From sequence record MK931441.1: a stretch of DNA of 44,454 bases, one strand, 5' to 3'. The notes under the pieces were generated by a model that saw nothing but the letters and a program-made list of their open reading frames with translations, was not told the DNA's origin and ran no database searches. Of the stretch, positions 598 to 9,033 are shown in pieces. Positions within the stretch are counted from its first letter, which is position 1, and each line of letters begins with the position of its first letter. Origin of the DNA: Escherichia phage Snoke. The translations under genes were made by a program, and so were the position numbers.

Positions 598-1844
598 GTA
601 TTCAGCTATCAGCCCCTCAGGCGCTGTTCCTGAACTGCGATAACAAATACAAGGCCTATGTCGGTGGCTTCGGCAGCGGCAAGACGTTTGTCGGCTGCCT
701 CGACCTGCTTACGTTCATGCTTAAGCACCCTGGTACGCGCCTTGGCTACTTCGGACCGACCTACCCAGCTATCCGCGACATCTTCTACCCCACGTTCGAG
801 GAAGCGGCTAACCTCCTTGGCCTCGATGTTCTGGTTAAATCCGGCGACAAAGAGGTCGTCGTTACGCGCGGTAAGACTGTAATTGGTACAGTAATCTGCC
901 GCTCGATGGATAACCCCGGCTCGATAGTCGGCTTCAAAATCGCTGCTGCGGTAGTCGATGAATTAGACGTACTGAGCCGTGAGAAAGCGGAGCTAGCGTG
1001 GAACAAAATCGTGGCCCGTATGCGTCTGGTTATCCCTGGCGTAATTAACCACATCTCCGTCACTACGACGCCGGAGGGGTTCAAGTTCGTCTACGCCAAG
1101 TTCAAAGAGAACCCGACACCTAGCTACTCTATGGTGCAGGCGTCAACTCATGAGAACGCCAGGTTCCTGCCGCCGGATTACATCAGCTCGCTGACCGAGA
1201 CCTACCCGGCGCAGTTGATTAACGCCTACCTTAATGGTGAGTTCGTTAACCTTACTTCTGGCAGTGTCTACTACGCCTACGACCGACGAAAGCACCGCAG
1301 TAAAGAGACAATCAAACCTGGTGACACCCTGTACATCGGGCAGGACTTCAACGTTACGAAAAACGCCAGCGCCGTGTATGTGCAACGCCCTAACGGGTGG
1401 CACGCGGTAGCAGAACTGAAAGGGCTGTTCGACACTCCTGACACCGTGCGCGTTATTACCGAGAAGTGGAAGTCGCAAGGCCACCGCATCGTCGTGTATC
1501 CGGATGCCAGCGGAAAGAACCGCAAGACCAACTCGGCGTCAATCTCTGACATAGCCTTACTCCAGCAGGCCGGGTTCGATGTGCGGGCTAAATCTGCCAA
1601 TCCGCCGGTTAAGGACCGTGTTTTAGCCGTGAATACCGCGCTGGAAAAAGGTAAGCTGTGGGTTAATGACCACTTATGCCCTGAGATAGCGAAGACGCTG
1701 GAGCAGCAGGCATACGACGATAAAGGAGAGCCAGCTAAAGACGGCGTAATCGACCATATGGCGGATGCCCTCGGCTATCCTGTAGTTTACGAGATGCCGG
1801 TGGTTAAACCCGTAATCAACATCCCGGTGACTTTCGCACTTTAA
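594..1844 (+). CDS. terminase large subunit
   Basis: Walker A GGFGSGKT and Walker B-like VVDELD in N-terminal ATPase region; conserved position before portal gene. Confidence 0.85.
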   Translation: MSIQLSAPQALFLNCDNKYKAYVGGFGSGKTFVGCLDLLTFMLKHPGTRLGYFGPTYPAIRDIFYPTFEEAANLLGLDVLVKSGDKEVVVTRGKTVIGTVICRSMDNPGSIVGFKIAAAVVDELDVLSREKAELAWNKIVARMRLVIPGVINHISVTTTPEGFKFVYAKFKENPTPSYSMVQASTHENARFLPPDYISSLTETYPAQLINAYLNGEFVNLTSGSVYYAYDRRKHRSKETIKPGDTLYIGQDFNVTKNASAVYVQRPNGWHAVAELKGLFDTPDTVRVITEKWKSQGHRIVVYPDASGKNRKTNSASISDIALLQQAGFDVRAKSANPPVKDRVLAVNTALEKGKLWVNDHLCPEIAKTLEQQAYDDKGEPAKDGVIDHMADALGYPVVYEMPVVKPVINIPVTFAL

Positions 1845-1856
1845 GAGGATTATTCA

Positions 1857-3338
1857 ATGTTAACTATGAACGGTCAGAATCAGGGTGTTAAGACAAAACA
1901 CCGGGAATGGCTGCATCACTTCGATAAATGGCAGAAGGTACGCCACGCACTGGAAGGCGACCTTATCCGTTACCTGCGTAACGTCGGGAAGAACGAGCCG
2001 GACCCGACCTACGCGGCACAGCGGCAGGAAGAATACGAGAACGGCGCTATCTGCTACAACTTCACTAAACGTACCCTGGCGGGGATGGTCGGCAGTGTCA
2101 TGCGCAAAGACCCTGAGCAGATTATTCCGCCTGAACTGGAGTACCTGCTACGTAATGCCGACGGTTCCGGTGTCGGGCTGTGGCAGCACGCGCAGGACAC
2201 GCTGATGGAAATTGACTCAGTAGGCCGTGGCGGGTTGCTGGTGGACGCGCCGGAGACAGCAGCGGCAACGGCAGCAGAGCAGAACGCAGGATTATTAAAC
2301 CCGGTCATCGCGTTCTACACTGCGGAGAACATCATCAACTGGCGACTGACCCGCATCGGTTCGGTTAACCGTGTGACAATGGTCGTGCTGCGTGAGGTGT
2401 GGGAATACTCAGAACCTGGCGCAGAGTTTGAAACAAAGTTCGGTGAACAATACCGCGTTCTCGATTTGATTGACGGGCGCTACCGCCAGCGCATTTACCG
2501 CTTCGATGCCGAAGGTGGTGCGCAGGATGAAGTAATCGAAATATTCCCGGAACTCGGCGAACAGTTACGCGGTAAAATCCCGTTTACGTTCATTGGGGCA
2601 AGCAACAACGACGCCACTATAGACGATGCGCCTTTGCTGCCGTTGGCTGAACTCAATATCGGGCATTTCCGCAACAGCGCAGACAATGAGGAGTCCAGCT
2701 TCGTTGTAGGCCAGCCCACTCTGTTCATCGCCCCGGGCGGGAATATGAGCATGGAGCAGTGGAAAGAAGCCAACCCACACGGGGTACGCATGGGGTCGCG
2801 TTCAGGCCATAACATCGGTGAGGGCGGCAATGCGTTTCTGGTTCAGGCGGGGGAGAACAACCTCGCCAAGCAGAACATGCTGGATAAAGAGAATCAGGCC
2901 CTCCAGATTGGCGCACAGCTTATTACCCCGACGCAGCAAATCACCGCTGAATCGGCCCGTCTGCAACGTGGCGCTGATACGTCTGTTATGTCGACAATCG
3001 CACGTAACGTAAGCATGGCGTACACCGATGCGTTGCGCTGGGTAGCTGCGATGCTCGGGCTTAGTGACGGTACTGAGATTGAGTTCAAGCTGAATATGGA
3101 GTTCTTCCTGCAACCGATGACCGCTCAGGACCGCGCTCAGTGGATGGCGGACATTAATGCCGGTCTGCTGCCAGCGACCGCATACTACGCCGCGTTGCGT
3201 AAAGCAGGGGTGACTGACTGGACCGACGAGGATATTCAGAACGCTATTGAGGACGCACCTCTGCCGTTAGGTGCTGTTACTCAGGTGGCAGGAGAGATTC
3301 CGCAGTCGGTGCAGCAACAAGATGTCACTCAGCAGTAA
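1857..3338 (+). CDS. portal protein (putative)
   Basis: 493-aa ORF between large terminase and head morphogenesis gene; size and position typical of portal; no motif check possible by eye. Confidence 0.65.
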   Translation: MLTMNGQNQGVKTKHREWLHHFDKWQKVRHALEGDLIRYLRNVGKNEPDPTYAAQRQEEYENGAICYNFTKRTLAGMVGSVMRKDPEQIIPPELEYLLRNADGSGVGLWQHAQDTLMEIDSVGRGGLLVDAPETAAATAAEQNAGLLNPVIAFYTAENIINWRLTRIGSVNRVTMVVLREVWEYSEPGAEFETKFGEQYRVLDLIDGRYRQRIYRFDAEGGAQDEVIEIFPELGEQLRGKIPFTFIGASNNDATIDDAPLLPLAELNIGHFRNSADNEESSFVVGQPTLFIAPGGNMSMEQWKEANPHGVRMGSRSGHNIGEGGNAFLVQAGENNLAKQNMLDKENQALQIGAQLITPTQQITAESARLQRGADTSVMSTIARNVSMAYTDALRWVAAMLGLSDGTEIEFKLNMEFFLQPMTAQDRAQWMADINAGLLPATAYYAALRKAGVTDWTDEDIQNAIEDAPLPLGAVTQVAGEIPQSVQQQDVTQQ

Positions 3339-3348
3339 GTTCACATAT

Positions 3349-3370
3349 AGCCCCGAAAGGGGCTTTCTTA
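3349..3370 (+). terminator. stem-loop / weak intrinsic terminator after portal gene
   Basis: AGCCCC-GAAA-GGGGCT hairpin followed by TTCTTA. Confidence 0.4.
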
Positions 3371-3374
3371 TAGT

Positions 3375-5267
3375 ATGCTATTAACTTTAGCGCCACAGGG
3401 TTTATCTATGAGCTTACTTACATCTCTAATCAGCCACCAGATATGGCTGCAACGCACTGCATCCGGTGAGGTGAAAGACCTCGCGCCGTTCATTAAGGAG
3501 ATGCGGGACGAAATAAAACGGCAGGTGCTGTTATTCGGTGACGACGGGCGGAGCACTGCGCGACTGAATAAACTGTTACTCGACCTTGAAGAAGCGCTAA
3601 CCGGACTTACCGGCGATTGGCAAACAAAGCTGACAGAAGACCTTATGGAACTGGCGGCGTATGAGGCCGAGTGGAATGTAAAGACACTGACCACCAACGT
3701 AGATGCGGAATTTGTTACGCCTACTGCCGAACAGGTGTGGTCCGCTGCCGAGTTTCAACCCTTATCATTAAGCGACAAGCCTGTTGATTTCACTAAGCTG
3801 ATGTCGGGATGGGGTGAAACCGAAGTAGCACGTCTCGTAACCGGCGTTAAGATGGGCTTTGTTCAGGGTAAGACAACACGGCAGATTGTTAAGAATGTTG
3901 TTGGTGCTGGTGGTTTGGCGGACATTTCAGAACGTAACGCGGCTACTGTAATCCGCACCGCGCTGTCTCATGTATCCAACGAGGCCCGTAACGAGACGTA
4001 CCGCCAGAACGACGACATCATCGAGAAGTACGAGTGGGTGTCGACGCTGGACAGCCGTACCAGTACGATTTGTAGGGCCAGAGACGGAATGACGTGGGAA
4101 ATCGGTAAGGGGCCGATGCCCCCGGCCCATCCGAATTGTTTACTTGGGGACACTGTAGTATCTACCGGTAGTCCTGTTTCTAACATTTTTAAACGGGCGT
4201 ACAAAGGCACTGTAGTCTATGTCTCTACAAAGTCCGGTCGCACCTTGTCTATCACCCCAAACCACCAGGTATTGACTACCAGTGGTTGGGTTGCTTCCGG
4301 CCTTCTCAATGTAGGTGACAAGCTCGTGTGCGCTAAGGACTCTACTCTCTCTCTCAAGCATAAGGAACACAACGTTGTAGCCAAGTTCTCCGATTTGTTT
4401 AGTGCGGCTAATGTAGCGGTCAATCCTGCGGCGGTCCGTACAAGCCCAACCTCCACCGAAGACTTCCACGGCGACGGAACCGACGGCGAAGTCGAGATTG
4501 TACTTGTCGACCGCCTTTCCTGGGATAAAGTCAAGTCCGGACTGAATAAGCAAATCATTGACAAGGAACTCCCAGTGACTGCCGGCGTTGATGACTCCCT
4601 CCCTGGCTTTGGCTCTGCGAAGCAGTTCGGCATGGTCGGCCTTTCTCCCTCGGACAGCTTCGTGCGCGGCGGCAGAGAGAGCGAGGCGCTCCTCGGGAGT
4701 AGCTTTAGCCATTCTGATAAACATAGCGTCGCTACCTCCGCGAATGGTAACGCCGTTCTCTCTGAGAACGCGTATGACTGGACTACACGAAACGCCGATA
4801 ATCTTTCCGATTTCAACTGGTCCGATGCCGTTGGCGTAGAGCTTGATGATGTTGTCAATTTGGTCTTTAGTGAAGCTGATTTTTGCGGGCATGTTTATAA
4901 CCTCGAAAATGAACAGAACTGGTATCTTGCGAATGGAATTATAGCACATAACTGTCGCTCAACAACCGCGCCTGTAATCAGTTCGGAGTTCGACTTCCTC
5001 GATAAAGGCGCAAAACGCGCGGCTAAGGGCGCGGACGGCGGTATGCAGGTAAGCGCGGACACCACCTATTACGAGTTCCTGAAACAACAACCGGCATGGT
5101 TTCAGGACCAGGCGCTTGGTTCTGTTCGCGGTAAGATTTTCCGCAACAGCGGTATATCACCAGAGGAGTTTCGCGTAATATCTGTAGATGGTTTCGGGAA
5201 TCCGCTCACGCTTAAGCAGATGGCGGAACTCGATAAACGTGTTGCTGATTATCTGAAAGGGGATTAA
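3375..5267 (+). CDS. head morphogenesis protein precursor (Mu F / SPP1 gp7-like) containing an intein
   Basis: Extein carries the minor-head-protein signature DSRTSTICRARDG...PPAHPN-C-R; 630-aa precursor = about 358-aa extein plus 272-aa intein. Confidence 0.8.
   Translation: MLLTLAPQGLSMSLLTSLISHQIWLQRTASGEVKDLAPFIKEMRDEIKRQVLLFGDDGRSTARLNKLLLDLEEALTGLTGDWQTKLTEDLMELAAYEAEWNVKTLTTNVDAEFVTPTAEQVWSAAEFQPLSLSDKPVDFTKLMSGWGETEVARLVTGVKMGFVQGKTTRQIVKNVVGAGGLADISERNAATVIRTALSHVSNEARNETYRQNDDIIEKYEWVSTLDSRTSTICRARDGMTWEIGKGPMPPAHPNCLLGDTVVSTGSPVSNIFKRAYKGTVVYVSTKSGRTLSITPNHQVLTTSGWVASGLLNVGDKLVCAKDSTLSLKHKEHNVVAKFSDLFSAANVAVNPAAVRTSPTSTEDFHGDGTDGEVEIVLVDRLSWDKVKSGLNKQIIDKELPVTAGVDDSLPGFGSAKQFGMVGLSPSDSFVRGGRESEALLGSSFSHSDKHSVATSANGNAVLSENAYDWTTRNADNLSDFNWSDAVGVELDDVVNLVFSEADFCGHVYNLENEQNWYLANGIIAHNCRSTTAPVISSEFDFLDKGAKRAAKGADGGMQVSADTTYYEFLKQQPAWFQDQALGSVRGKIFRNSGISPEEFRVISVDGFGNPLTLKQMAELDKRVADYLKGD
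4137..4952 (+). mobile_element. intein (Hint domain), 272 aa
   Basis: Begins Cys1 CLLGDTVV (block A), SITPNHQVLT (block B, TxxH), ends VYNLENEQNWYLANGIIAHN (blocks F/G, terminal HN) followed by Cys+1 at 4953; splits conserved extein motif HPN|CR. Confidence 0.8.
4140..4892 (-). CDS. HTH + Vsr/DUF559-like PD-(D/E)XK endonuclease, candidate homing endonuclease encoded antisense to the intein
   Basis: Minus-strand ORF coextensive with the intein; ATG at 4892 preceded by GAGG with 8-nt spacer; N-terminal HTH (ISFTKDQIDNIIKLYANGIGPVEIGKIIGVSCSPVIRVLRENG) and nuclease signature SHWEFLVNDLL...YNLDFAVGSVAVEVFGGGW...RRRIDRYISRTKQIGELGYNVVF; ORF track gives upstream ATG at 4949 without SD. Confidence 0.6.
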   Translation of the reverse strand: MPAKISFTKDQIDNIIKLYANGIGPVEIGKIIGVSCSPVIRVLRENGVTIRGGSDAMFIRMAKATPEERLALSAAAHEAVRGRKADHAELLRRAKAREGVINAGSHWEFLVNDLLIQSGLDFIPGKAVDKYNLDFAVGSVAVEVFGGGWACTDRRRIDRYISRTKQIGELGYNVVFLMLERESRVLSAHELVTYIEKAGSNPTTGSQYLVVWGDRQGATGLCRDIDYSAFVRPFKNVRNRTTGRYYSVPK

Positions 5268-5728
5268 TGATGGGCTTTTTTAAAGTAACTGATGTGCCGT
5301 CGCGTCGCGTAGTCCAGTACGCCCGTGTATCCGGTTCTGGTGAGAACGTGGTGTCTATTGGGGACGAAAGTGTACTAGGTACACCGGTAGACGAGATGCC
5401 GTATGCGGACAAGACCGGTATCGCACTCTCTGCTGCTGGTATGCTTTATGAGATTCCGTATCGGGCAGATGCTGGTGATGTGTATTTCTCTGTGCAACCG
5501 AAAGACACCGAGCTGGTCGACGGTAGCGCCACCATCACCGTCGAAGTTAAGGCGGGTAAAGCGCCGTATGTACTGACCTGGTACAAAGACGGGAAGGAAG
5601 TGGTGAACGTCCCGGAAGAGGCTCTGTCTCTGACTGTTAATGCGGCTGGTGAATACTTCGTTAAAGTTACTGATGCCGATGGTGCGGAGGCCGTAAGCAA
5701 AGCGGCGAAGGTCTCTAAACCAGGATGA
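5267..5728 (+). CDS. Ig-like domain protein (virion-associated, function unknown)
   Basis: C-terminal beta-rich repeat with YVLTWYKDGKEV motif typical of bacterial Ig-like domains; start overlaps stop of morphogenesis gene. Confidence 0.5.
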   Translation: MMGFFKVTDVPSRRVVQYARVSGSGENVVSIGDESVLGTPVDEMPYADKTGIALSAAGMLYEIPYRADAGDVYFSVQPKDTELVDGSATITVEVKAGKAPYVLTWYKDGKEVVNVPEEALSLTVNAAGEYFVKVTDADGAEAVSKAAKVSKPG

Positions 5729-5730
5729 TA

Positions 5731-5760
5731 AAAGGCCCCATAATGGGGCCTTAGTTTTAT
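5731..5760. terminator. bidirectional intrinsic terminator
   Basis: AGGCCCCA-TAA-TGGGGCCT hairpin flanked by A-run upstream and T-run downstream, between convergent genes. Confidence 0.7.
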
Positions 5761-6278
5761 TTAAATCGCGCGGGCATTAACACCATAAAGGCCGTGTTTG
5801 AAAATTGTATTTTGCATCCTCTGGTTTGGTCCTGGAAATCGAAACGAGCAATTTCATTTTTGTATGCCTTAGAAATCTTGTACGCGTCTGCCAAATAGCG
5901 CAGAGTGAACCCTATACTACCGACAACACCCGGTGTGATGTGCGCCACGCGTCTCCAGTCAGGAAAGTTTCCTTCTACAACATCTACCGGAAGTGTACAT
6001 ATAAGCGCACGATTATCGTCATAGAAAGATACACTGCCGTTGTCGTGGTCTACCTCTGCGTAGTTAAATTTAGAAGGCTCTCTCCCTTTAATGTCGACGA
6101 GAACCCCTTTCTCAACGTTCGTCTTCACATTGTCGCAGAACAATCTATGACCGTCCGTAGACACTATCAATCCTTCAGGGTCTATGTAAAAAGCGTTCAA
6201 ATAGTAGCGAACATCATTTTTAGCCCTGCATATTTTCGCCCCTACATACGCAGGGAAAGTAATTACTGTAGTAACCAT
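5757..6278 (-). CDS. truncated DnaN-like protein (beta sliding clamp homolog, domain II plus partial domain III)
   Basis: 173 aa; DVRYYLNAF...STDGHRLFC, EGNFPDWRRV, IGFTLRYLADA and C-terminal FMVLMPARFK match, in order and spacing, E. coli DnaN motifs DVRYYLNG...ATDGHRLAVC, DGRFPDYRRV, IGFNVSYVLDVLNA and YVVMPMRL; strong SD AGGAGG 6 nt before ATG. Confidence 0.6.
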   Translation of the reverse strand: MVTTVITFPAYVGAKICRAKNDVRYYLNAFYIDPEGLIVSTDGHRLFCDNVKTNVEKGVLVDIKGREPSKFNYAEVDHDNGSVSFYDDNRALICTLPVDVVEGNFPDWRRVAHITPGVVGSIGFTLRYLADAYKISKAYKNEIARFDFQDQTRGCKIQFSNTAFMVLMPARFK

Positions 6279-7155: not shown

Positions 7156-7237
7156 TTGCCTTGTATGTTGGAATAATTTATTCTTGACATGTAAATCCGG
7201 GAGGCCCGGATTCCAACGTCCAGGGGACATACTGACT

Positions 7238-7939
7238 ATGAATCGTTTTTTACACTATCCGTTCCAGGAAGAAGCTGGGGCAGAAGATAAATCCGGCGGT
7301 GGCGACGCTCCAAAAATGTTCACCGCTGAAGAAGTTCAGGCGATGATTGAGAAAGAAGTTGCCGGACTTAAGGCCAATCAGGAAGCATTGCTGGCGGAGA
7401 AGAAAGAAGCCGCCCGTAAAGCAAAAGAGGCCGAAGAGGAACGTCAGCGCGCGCACCAGGAGGCGCTAAAAGCCGCCGGTAAGATGGACGAGTTCGAAAA
7501 GACGATTCGTAGCCAGTATGACCCGGTGTTAGCCGAGAAAGATGGTCGCATCACCAAAATGGCTGAGCGCATCCTCGGCAGCGAACGTAAAGCGGTGTTA
7601 GGCTCTTTCGCAGGTGATTTCATCACACCGGAAGCAGTAGACATTCTTGCTCCGTTCGTTAAGACTGAGTTTGAAGGCGATGACGTGGTTACTAAGTTTG
7701 TTGGTGCAGACGGCAACGTAATCACAACTGACCCGGAACAGTTCCGCAAATACCTGCGTGAACACAAAGCGTTTTCGCATTTGATTAAAGCAAATGCAGC
7801 TTCCGGCGGCGGGGCTTCCGGCGGCAAAGGCGGCGGGGCCGCACCAGCGTTTAAAGACATGAACGAAGCGGAGCGTTTAGCTCTGTACAAATCGAACCCT
7901 GCCGAATTTGAACGGCAACTTAAAGCCCTGAGGAAATAA
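7238..7939 (+). CDS. scaffolding protein (putative)
   Basis: Charged, helix-prone, A/E/K-rich protein immediately upstream of major capsid gene; start taken at first ATG (ORF track extends to 7184). Confidence 0.5.
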   Translation: MNRFLHYPFQEEAGAEDKSGGGDAPKMFTAEEVQAMIEKEVAGLKANQEALLAEKKEAARKAKEAEEERQRAHQEALKAAGKMDEFEKTIRSQYDPVLAEKDGRITKMAERILGSERKAVLGSFAGDFITPEAVDILAPFVKTEFEGDDVVTKFVGADGNVITTDPEQFRKYLREHKAFSHLIKANAASGGGASGGKGGGAAPAFKDMNEAERLALYKSNPAEFERQLKALRK

Positions 7940-7941
7940 TA

Positions 7942-8991
7942 ATGGCAATTACCACTATCGGCGATATCGTAACTGGCAACGTACCCGTCCTTCTGTCCTA
8001 TATGACTGAGGACCCGGTAGAGAAAACTGCGTTCTTCCAGTCCGGCATCCTGGCCCCGACCCCGTACGCTGCTGAGATTGCTCGCGGTCCGTCCAACGTC
8101 GCTAATATTCCTTTCTGGAAAGCGATTGATACCTCTATCGAGCCGAACTACTCGAACGATGTATATCAGGACATCGCCACTCCACGCAACGTACAAACCG
8201 GTGAGATGATGGCACGCGTCGCTTATCTGAACGAAGGCTTCGGACAGGCAGACCTGACTGTTGAACTGACCAGCCAGAACCCGCTGCAATCTGTTGCCGC
8301 TCGTCTGGATAACTTCTGGCAGCGTCAGGCACAGCGCCGTCTGATTGCTACCGCTCTCGGCCTGTATAACGACAACGTAACGGCAACCGATGCTTACCAC
8401 GAGCAGAACGACATGGTTATCGACGTGTCTGCGACTCTGGGCTTCGATTCTGGCGCGTTCATTGACGCTACCCAAACCATGGGTGACGCGCTGATGGGTA
8501 ATGGTGGTGAAGTGCTGGGGGCAATCGCGATGCATAGCTTCGTGTATGCGCAGGCGCGTAAGCAACAGCTTATCGACTTCATCCGCGATGCCGACAACAA
8601 CACCATGTTCGCCACCTACCAGGGCTACCGCGTGATTGTTGACGACAGCATGACCGTAGTTGGTACTGACTCTAGCCGTAAGTTCATCTCCATCATCTTC
8701 GGCAACGGTGCTATCGGTTATGGTGAAGGCAACCCGTCCAACCCGCTGGAATATGAACGCGAAGCGTCTCGCGGTAACGGTGGTGGCGTAGAAACCCTGT
8801 GGACTCGTAAGACCTGGCTGCTGCACCCACTGGGCTACAGCTTCACCAGCGCGGTAATCACCGGCAACGGCACCGAGACTACCCCACGCTCCGCTTCCTG
8901 GCAGGACCTGGCAAACGCCTCCAACTGGAACCGTGTTGTTGACCGCAAGCATGTACCGATTGCCTTCCTGGTAACTGGTGTCGGGGCTTAA
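7942..8991 (+). CDS. major capsid protein
   Basis: 349-aa ORF after scaffold, good SD GAGGA, followed by strong hairpin; position and size typical of major capsid protein. Confidence 0.7.
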   Translation: MAITTIGDIVTGNVPVLLSYMTEDPVEKTAFFQSGILAPTPYAAEIARGPSNVANIPFWKAIDTSIEPNYSNDVYQDIATPRNVQTGEMMARVAYLNEGFGQADLTVELTSQNPLQSVAARLDNFWQRQAQRRLIATALGLYNDNVTATDAYHEQNDMVIDVSATLGFDSGAFIDATQTMGDALMGNGGEVLGAIAMHSFVYAQARKQQLIDFIRDADNNTMFATYQGYRVIVDDSMTVVGTDSSRKFISIIFGNGAIGYGEGNPSNPLEYEREASRGNGGGVETLWTRKTWLLHPLGYSFTSAVITGNGTETTPRSASWQDLANASNWNRVVDRKHVPIAFLVTGVGA

Positions 8992-9006
8992 GGTTAAGAT
9001 ATAATC

Positions 9007-9033
9007 GAGAGGGACTTCGGTCCCTCTTTTCAT
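9007..9033 (+). terminator. intrinsic terminator/attenuator after capsid gene
   Basis: GAGGGAC-TTCG-GTCCCTC hairpin followed by TTTTCAT. Confidence 0.6.

Follow-up and report, generated by a model that had tools for sequence, protein, structure and literature searches.

A stretch of 44,454 nucleotides (nt) from Escherichia phage Snoke (sequence record MK931441.1), referred to here as the window, was analyzed around its MuF-type head morphogenesis gene. With a probability of about 0.82, this gene of a Kagunavirus-like (Guernseyvirinae) coliphage carries a mobile intein of the antisense-endonuclease type, in which the minus strand of the intein itself encodes the endonuclease, codon for codon in register with the intein frame. 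Each of the two frames is real, and the zones in which they are selected complement one another. An earlier note, made from the letters of the window alone, had proposed such a dual-coding stretch. The coordinates it gave for the minus-strand open reading frame (ORF) and for the intein were all exact, and a real antisense gene was borne out by frame-specific purifying selection, a Vsr-like fold, deep conservation and avoidance of stop codons.

Selection was tested by dN/dS in both frames of 12 gap-free Guernseyvirinae alleles. At the centre of the intein (residues 63-235) dN/dS was 0.09-0.21 in the endonuclease frame compared to 0.90-1.05 in the intein frame. The variable sites of the centre numbered 104, 28 and 52 at host codon positions 1, 2 and 3, respectively, and the wobble signature therefore belongs to the minus frame. 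The pattern was reversed over intein residues 236-272 (blocks F and G), where divergent pairs gave 0.02-0.08 in the intein frame and about 1-2 in the endonuclease frame. The N-terminal splicing region showed an intermediate pattern. At codon level, purifying selection in the minus frame at the centre and its reversal over blocks F and G agreed with the two-gene proposal. Among 63 non-redundant loci, conservation over endonuclease residues 21-190 was roughly twofold higher in the minus frame than in the intein frame, and over intein residues 13-62 the intein frame was the more conserved. The C-terminal 60 or so codons of the endonuclease overlie the N-terminal Hint (splicing) lobe, the intein frame is better conserved there, and these codons are probably tolerated rather than selected. 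The suggestion that the opposite strand shapes the intein centre was upheld for the centre itself, but the overlap extends beyond the linker, with these 60 or so codons lying over the N-terminal splicing domain.

Stop codons were avoided in the intein frame. TTA, CTA and TCA are the only Leu and Ser codons of the minus ORF that would place a stop in the intein frame, and they were used for none of its 18 Leu and none of its 15 Ser codons (P ~6e-4 with the phage's own codon usage). The codon-aligned host frame was fully open across the match in 86 of 87 related loci, so that both frames are open in those relatives, as the proposal required. It was also open in further endonuclease-bearing loci (L089-L095 and L096-L099). 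The sole locus with an interrupted host frame was L014. The interruption is near the intein N-terminus, with 87% of the match covered, and may reflect decay or fracture of this copy or a fault in the assembly.

Some motifs of one frame mirror those of the other. The conserved intein-frame motif EDFHGDG (4461-4481, plus strand, residues 109-115) is the antisense of the nuclease motif AVEVFGG, and blocks B and A of the intein, read antisense, give the endonuclease tail motifs YxVVWG and RNxTTGRY. Part of the conservation of each frame is therefore an imprint of the other. EDFHGDG is a shadow motif which is easily mistaken for an intein block.

The host gene encodes a precursor of 630 amino acids. 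Its product matched Phage_Mu_F of Pfam at residues 159-255 (E 2.4e-11), PHROG 241 (head morphogenesis; E 2e-147) and, above the curated threshold, Intein_splicing (PF14890; 41.9 bits, cutoff 35.8). The intein is 816 nt long, is uninterrupted in the single ORF and is inserted in the conserved MuF motif PPxHxx-CR(S/C). Cys1 (4137-4139) directly follows ...AHPN. The C-terminal end reads CAT AAC TGT (4947-4955), in which His-Asn occupies 4947-4952 and the +1 Cys 4953-4955. The layout of a fractured gene with a split intein, in which two ORFs each carry an intein half, was not found at this locus. A Pfam profile search of the intein centre in its own frame gave no endonuclease-family match. Residues 63-235 are rich in S, V, A and D, and the description of the centre as a low-complexity region lacking endonuclease features was thus accurate. 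The AlphaFold2 model of the intein frame had a mean pLDDT (predicted score in the local distance difference test) of 43.7 with a low-confidence centre, and the means of 10-residue blocks were about 22-48 in residues 124-226. Working protein splicing is supported only indirectly, through the purifying selection on blocks F and G and the site in the conserved MuF motif.

The limits of the antisense gene coincide with splicing blocks. Read in reverse complement, intein codon 2 (Leu) supplies its stop codon TAA (4142-4140) and the His codon CAT (4890-4892) of block F its ATG at 4892. A GAGG lies 8 nt upstream of the ATG and is the reverse complement of 4901-4904. It had been placed opposite the block F Leu codon CTC, which it does overlap, while 4901-4904 also takes in the last base of the Asn codon AAC. 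A longer form of 269 amino acids starting at the ATG at 4949, given in the ORF listing, was rejected because an in-frame TAG lies between the two ATGs in phages PhiSTP2 and vB_STM-ZS. Most gene calls and homologues begin at the M-P/S/A-(R/K)-K position, which corresponds to the shorter start. A third ORF in another frame (4217-4858, minus strand, 213 amino acids) was also rejected. Its frame contains two stops across the window intein and 5-7 in divergent relatives. In 37 of the 63 non-redundant loci the endonuclease stop fell exactly opposite intein codon 2 (Leu TTA or CTA), and in most of the remainder it lay no more than a few codons away.

The minus-strand protein was predicted to have a Vsr-type nuclease fold. 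Its AlphaFold2 model had a pLDDT of 84.9, built from only 14 sequences, and the family profile matched structure 3R3P (I-Bth0305I) over the nuclease core (E 2.2e-6). Core residues are E108, the motif Y131-N132-x-D134 (D134 at 4491-4493) and V142-E143 (E143 at 4464-4466) of VAVEVFGGGW. E108 was kept in 61 of 63 and D134 in all 63 non-redundant loci, and their counterparts in I-Bth0305I are E170 and D196. D134 aligned to the D196A position of 3R3P. E143 is an extra acidic residue which is invariant or nearly so in the family. The second Asp (D222 of I-Bth0305I, D97 of Vsr) fell in a gapped part of the alignment, where D153 and D158 are candidates and no column is conserved across the family. REase_MTES_1575 (DUF559, PF18741), the closest nuclease model of Pfam that was found, matched the window protein below threshold (13 bits, E 0.12, cutoff 38.2). 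A Vsr/DUF559-type nuclease had been proposed; the Vsr part stands and the DUF559 label does not. The label best supported is the Vsr-like 'EDxHD' homing-endonuclease lineage of I-Bth0305I, not DUF559 as such.

The active site of the window protein differs from that of most relatives. His69 of Vsr and His213 of I-Bth0305I were proposed as the general base (Taylor 2011, PMC3239194). The window protein has Ala150 (4443-4445) at this position, after Trp149. 3R3P also has Ala there, as the engineered H213A. The non-redundant loci had W-H in 53 of 63 cases and W-A or W-S in nine, the latter forming the clade of the window, which also lacks a second nearby His and has a conserved inserted Asp (D153). 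We think that this clade is active with a modified active site, because it is under purifying selection and includes recently transferred copies.

The window phage is a siphophage of the Guernseyvirinae, nearest to the Kagunavirus coliphages, and its MuF exteins are 90-93% identical to those of more than 100 Escherichia phages. When spliced in silico, the gene aligned in one piece, at the same identity, to more than 100 intein-less Kagunavirus genes. The intein was found in only one other Escherichia phage of the collection searched. Its DNA was 95.7-97.7% identical to copies in Salmonella Jerseyvirus phages compared to 71-82% for the flanking 300 nt. Compared to the closest intein-less Kagunavirus allele, the N-extein was 97-100% identical and then dropped to 77% in its last 30 nt, where Jerseyvirus PST-H1 was 93% identical. 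The first 30 nt of the C-extein matched PST-H1 at 90% identity compared to 73% for the intein-less Kagunavirus allele. The pattern in these flanks of about 30 nt looks like what repair of a double-strand break with short co-conversion tracts would be expected to leave behind, the donor being Jersey-like and the recipient a Kagunavirus. Mobility of the intein is thus supported by the comparison of relatives with and without it, which gave both a signature of cross-genus transfer and co-conversion of the flanks.

Relatives of the endonuclease were widespread. Matches by tblastn at 25-48% identity were found in phages of Gordonia, Mycobacterium, Aggregatibacter (Aaphi23), Vibrio, Klebsiella, Acinetobacter, Edwardsiella and Idiomarinaceae. 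Others were found in Salmonella and Pantoea phages and in hundreds of IMG/VR contigs, and 457 of 475 IMG/VR pattern matches encoded relatives. In the three distant loci whose annotation was inspected, the match was antisense to the annotated MuF or minor head gene. The Gordonia phage MuF/minor capsid genes were matched on their antisense strand at E 6e-26 to 2e-25. The host proteins of Vivi2 (Gordonia), Aaphi23 and the Vibrio locus each combine Phage_Mu_F with Intein_splicing. No free-standing or sense-strand family member was found among the 87 loci and four further loci on longer contigs, all of which had the endonuclease antisense inside an intein.

Several individual loci were of note. On the metagenomic contig L096 an RtcB RNA-ligase gene (1498-2790, plus strand) contains a related intein whose intein frame shares 33% identity. 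Its antisense endonuclease ORF (1669-2334, minus strand) matched MTES_1575 (E 2.8e-8, 34.2 bits) and stops earlier, inside the intein. In L098 (3001-3864) an antisense family member lies in an intein with the ends HHVNC/LIEG...ITHN/CQPE, in which slashes mark the junctions, and the N-extein motif DVGCGPG suggests an S-adenosylmethionine-dependent methyltransferase as a candidate extein type. In Salmonella phage PK1 (L004, PV360690.1) there is a long antisense form (1444-2253) and an internal ORF (1730-2176) annotated as hypothetical. Nearly all other GenBank records among those listed annotate the MuF gene alone under the match, and the names used for MuF include 'NAD+--asparagine ADP-ribosyltransferase' and 'structural protein'. 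In Affeca and Angelicage (H122 and H124), two phages of Gordonia, tblastn matched an antisense ORF of the Vsr-like type within the MuF-like minor capsid genes (37% identity, E 2e-25). The Affeca/Angelicage intein cluster appears in a preprint passage on endonuclease VII-like inteins (10.1101/2025.01.02.630785), and these phages may contain two different inteins.

Codon bias in blocks F and G was examined in 55-58 non-redundant loci, 55 of them with a recognizable block F, with p values ranging from 2e-4 to 6e-20. The block F His codon was CAT in 47 of 55 loci and CAC in eight, giving ATG or GTG antisense (CAT background in the exteins 35%, p 2e-14). The Leu codon was CTC in 39 of 55 and CTT in 11 (CTC background 26%, p 6e-12), and the Asn codon was AAC in 45 of 50. 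Read antisense, these codons give GAGGTT or AAGGTT 8 nt upstream of the start. Block G had Ile as ATT in 41 of 49 (p 6e-20), followed by Ile as ATA in 25 of 35 (p 3e-10) or Val as GTA in 12 of 17 (p 1e-8), and Thr as ACA in 18 of 35 (p 2e-6). The antisense of these I-(I/V)-(T/A) codons is TG(T/C)TA(T/C)AAT, and most loci have it 45 nt upstream of the start. From this position and bias the TGnTATAAT-like element may be the endonuclease promoter. In the window the candidate -10 came from direct reading and family comparison. A RusA-like resolvase gene (5757-6278, minus strand) ends just before a GC-rich hairpin (5732-5752) which also terminates the plus-strand Hoc-like gene. Read-through from the RusA-like gene would be an alternative source of an antisense transcript reaching the endonuclease ORF.

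Several points weigh against the proposed element or its parts. The dN/dS values of overlapping frames are not independent of each other, and the codon-bias tests treat loci as independent despite their common ancestry. On the minus strand upstream of the ORF, a sigma-70 and terminator consensus scan of 3300-5800 gave no match, and its counts were at shuffle level. The scan required at least 4 of 6 matches per hexamer and therefore did not report the candidate promoter, whose -35 has 3. The -10-like element is accompanied by a weak -35 only, and in three of 12 close relatives it reads TATAAC, which fits the TATAAT consensus less well. Antisense transcription would run into transcription of the late operon. 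Catalysis may differ or be weakened with Ala150 in place of the catalytic His.

Three other explanations were weighed. The minus ORF could be a chance shadow ORF which makes no product. The window holds another ATG-initiated, codon-aligned antisense ORF, of 529 amino acids (7444-9033, minus strand), opposite the scaffolding gene (7184-7939) and the major head gene (7942-8991), and the third ORF within the intein is likewise long. The 529-residue ORF had no PHROG match and no family match and is probably a shadow ORF itself. It serves as an internal control for chance long antisense ORFs in this genome, and because it exists a long antisense ORF by itself proves nothing. For the endonuclease ORF, however, a shadow has next to no chance of being correct. 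It is the intein frame that is the neutral one at the centre, the Vsr-like model is confident, and the tblastn matches lie antisense in MuF inteins of unrelated phages, while the frame of the third ORF gains its 5-7 stops in divergent relatives. Selection and fold were counted as already refuting it.

In the other two explanations the endonuclease gene is real. The intein might not work as a contiguous intein, so that MuF is in effect broken, whether as a fractured gene or with a split intein (Dassa 2009), or the unspliced insert is tolerated. Vsr-like endonucleases were indeed first described between split-intein halves, and the host frame of L014 is interrupted. This explanation is nevertheless quite improbable given the open host frame of the other 86 loci and its active avoidance of stops, the presence of Cys1, TPNH, GHVYNLE, HN and Cys+1, the low dN/dS of blocks F and G in divergent pairs and the insertion inside the most conserved motif of MuF. 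A somewhat better chance, though still a small one, was given to a minus-strand protein which is expressed but has ceased to be a nuclease. In this case it would be a DNA-binding factor such as a regulator or a maturase-like helper, and the intein would be mostly vertically inherited or moved by another phage endonuclease. The W-A or W-S of the window's clade with no second His is compatible with this, as are the other nuclease genes, RusA-like or annotated as 'endonuclease VII', which adjoin the locus in relatives. Against it, the His-less clade includes the Guernseyvirinae copies with recent cross-genus transfer and co-conversion, D134, E143 and E108 are invariant or nearly so, the conserved acidic insertion D153 could compensate, and the endonuclease was co-inherited with the intein in every locus examined.

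The mobile intein with an antisense endonuclease is therefore preferred, and a mechanism can be proposed for it. The late mRNA would be translated straight through the intein. Hint blocks A, B, F and G would fold, splice the insert out and restore the MuF motif, and the approximately 170 central residues would be merely an obligatory stop-free read-through of the other strand. From the same codons in register, the minus strand would give a protein of 250 amino acids with an N-terminal helix-turn-helix and a C-terminal Vsr-like (EDxHD-lineage) core. In a mixed infection this endonuclease would cut intein-less MuF alleles near the insertion site, and in recombinational repair the recipient would acquire the intein together with the endonuclease gene and about 30 nt of flank on either side. 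The expression signals may be located in synonymous positions of the splicing blocks, with the stop in A, the ATG and GAGG in F and the TGnTATAAT-like element in G, so that the element would carry its own expression cassette. More generally, intein and antisense endonuclease could form a self-contained two-strand mobile unit, its expression cassette hard-wired in the splicing blocks. This could be the standard state of a large Vsr-like family found in phages of many bacterial phyla and in several exteins (MuF, RtcB and methyltransferase-like), the His-replaced clade included. This generalization is tentative and we place it a little below even odds. The features of the locus are listed in Table 1.

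Table 1. Features of the intein-bearing MuF locus in the window (positions count from the first letter of the window)
Feature	Position	Strand	Remarks
MuF / SPP1 gp7-type head morphogenesis (minor capsid) gene	3375..5267	+	630-residue precursor, intein included
N-extein flank, apparently co-converted	4107..4136	+	last 30 nt before the intein
Class-1 intein, 272 residues	4137..4952	+	Cys1 to His-Asn; from translation and Pfam Intein_splicing
Intein block A, CLLGDTVV	4137..4160	+	codon 2 TTA (4140-4142) is also the endonuclease stop
Putative antisense homing-endonuclease gene	4140..4892	-	250 residues plus stop; codons in register with intein codons
Intein block B, TPNH (Thr40, His43)	4254..4265	+	T40, N42 and H43 invariant in the alignment
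Predicted Vsr-like nuclease core	4293..4580	-	endonuclease residues about 105-200
Central intein	4323..4841	+	residues 63-235; neutrally evolving read-through, no confident predicted fold
Predicted N-terminal helix-turn-helix DNA-binding region	4758..4868	-	endonuclease residues about 9-45
Intein block F, GHVYNLE	4887..4907	+	antisense strand carries the endonuclease ATG and Shine-Dalgarno GAGG
Intein block G, NGIIAHN	4932..4952	+	followed by +1 Cys (4953-4955); from sequence and purifying selection
Candidate extended -10, TGCTATAAT	4938..4946	-	reverse complement of ATT ATA GCA in block G; 45 nt upstream of the ATG
C-extein flank, apparently co-converted	4953..4982	+	first 30 nt after the intein
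Weak candidate -35, TTGTTG	4960..4965	-	3 of 6 matches, 16-nt spacer; first C-extein codons
Insertion-site junction, spliced window allele			...CCGGCCCATCCGAAT / TGTCGCTCAACAACC...
Insertion-site junction, natural Kagunavirus allele			...CCGGCCCATTTTGGG / TGCCGAAGTACCACG...

The locus offers a clean natural case in which about 750 nt encode two proteins on opposite strands and selection switches strand along the sequence. It can be used to study the evolution of overlapping genes and to calibrate gene finders. With it, inteins of the antisense-endonuclease type, recently described in actinophages, are known from common coliphages and Salmonella phages as well. Such phages are easily manipulated, and splicing, antisense expression and homing are therefore directly testable in them. 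The target site lies in a conserved head-assembly gene, and a His-less Vsr-like nuclease may be of interest to those who study how nucleases work or who engineer them. The Jerseyvirus-Kagunavirus transfer indicates an element moving between phage genera which are used in therapy and biocontrol.

The earlier note was not aware of a described contiguous intein with an antisense endonuclease and called for the literature to be checked. Such inteins had in fact been reported: antisense VSR-like endonucleases in contiguous actinobacteriophage inteins were published in 2025 (Gosselin, Arsenault and Gogarten, bioRxiv 10.1101/2025.01.02.630785), and the arrangement is therefore not new in kind. Not found in the literature compared here were the frame-switching selection, the embedded expression signals, the breadth beyond actinophages and across exteins (RtcB in L096, methyltransferase-like in L098) and the His-less clade. 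One Jerseyvirus paper refers to an 'intein-containing capsid morphogenesis protein' with no mention of an antisense gene.

The actinophage inteins resemble that of the window in having a full intein, an antisense endonuclease ORF and an intein-frame centre with no recognizable structure. MuF-like minor capsid proteins are among the host genes of the preprint, and the window endonuclease is homologous to the antisense ORFs in Gordonia MuF inteins (E 6e-26). When the text of the preprint was searched, neither an analysis of selection by frame nor any reference to promoters, ribosome-binding sites or start codons turned up. The window differs in belonging to a Guernseyvirinae coliphage with relatives well outside the actinophages, and the catalytic His is missing from its clade. 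The same preprint cites Gorbalenya 1998 and Gogarten 2002 for antisense inteins of the LAGLIDADG type (Synechocystis DnaX). As far as that citation describes them, these are also contiguous inteins with a homing endonuclease read from the opposite strand, but the endonuclease there is LAGLIDADG while that of the window is Vsr-like. Going by the same citation, the principle of an antisense endonuclease in an intein is decades old.

Overprinting of an endonuclease on an in-frame, stop-free insertion in a phage gene is shared with the ShiLan methylase insertion, whose hidden HNH endonuclease is actively homing (Arsenault 2025, PMC11855218). That endonuclease differs from the one in the window in being on the same strand in another frame and of the HNH family, in an insertion with no splicing domain. 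The Vsr-like 'EDxHD' family itself was defined by Dassa (2009, PMC2677866) and characterized by Taylor (2011, PMC3239194). The window protein shares with I-Bth0305I and this family an N-terminal helix-turn-helix/NUMOD DNA-binding region followed by a C-terminal Vsr-fold nuclease, the conserved Glu and Asp and the extra acidic residue (E143), along with the profile and fold matches. It differs from I-Bth0305I in having Ala in place of His213. Members of the EDxHD family are free-standing between split-intein halves or are encoded on the sense strand in group I introns, whereas the endonuclease of the window is nested antisense in a contiguous intein.

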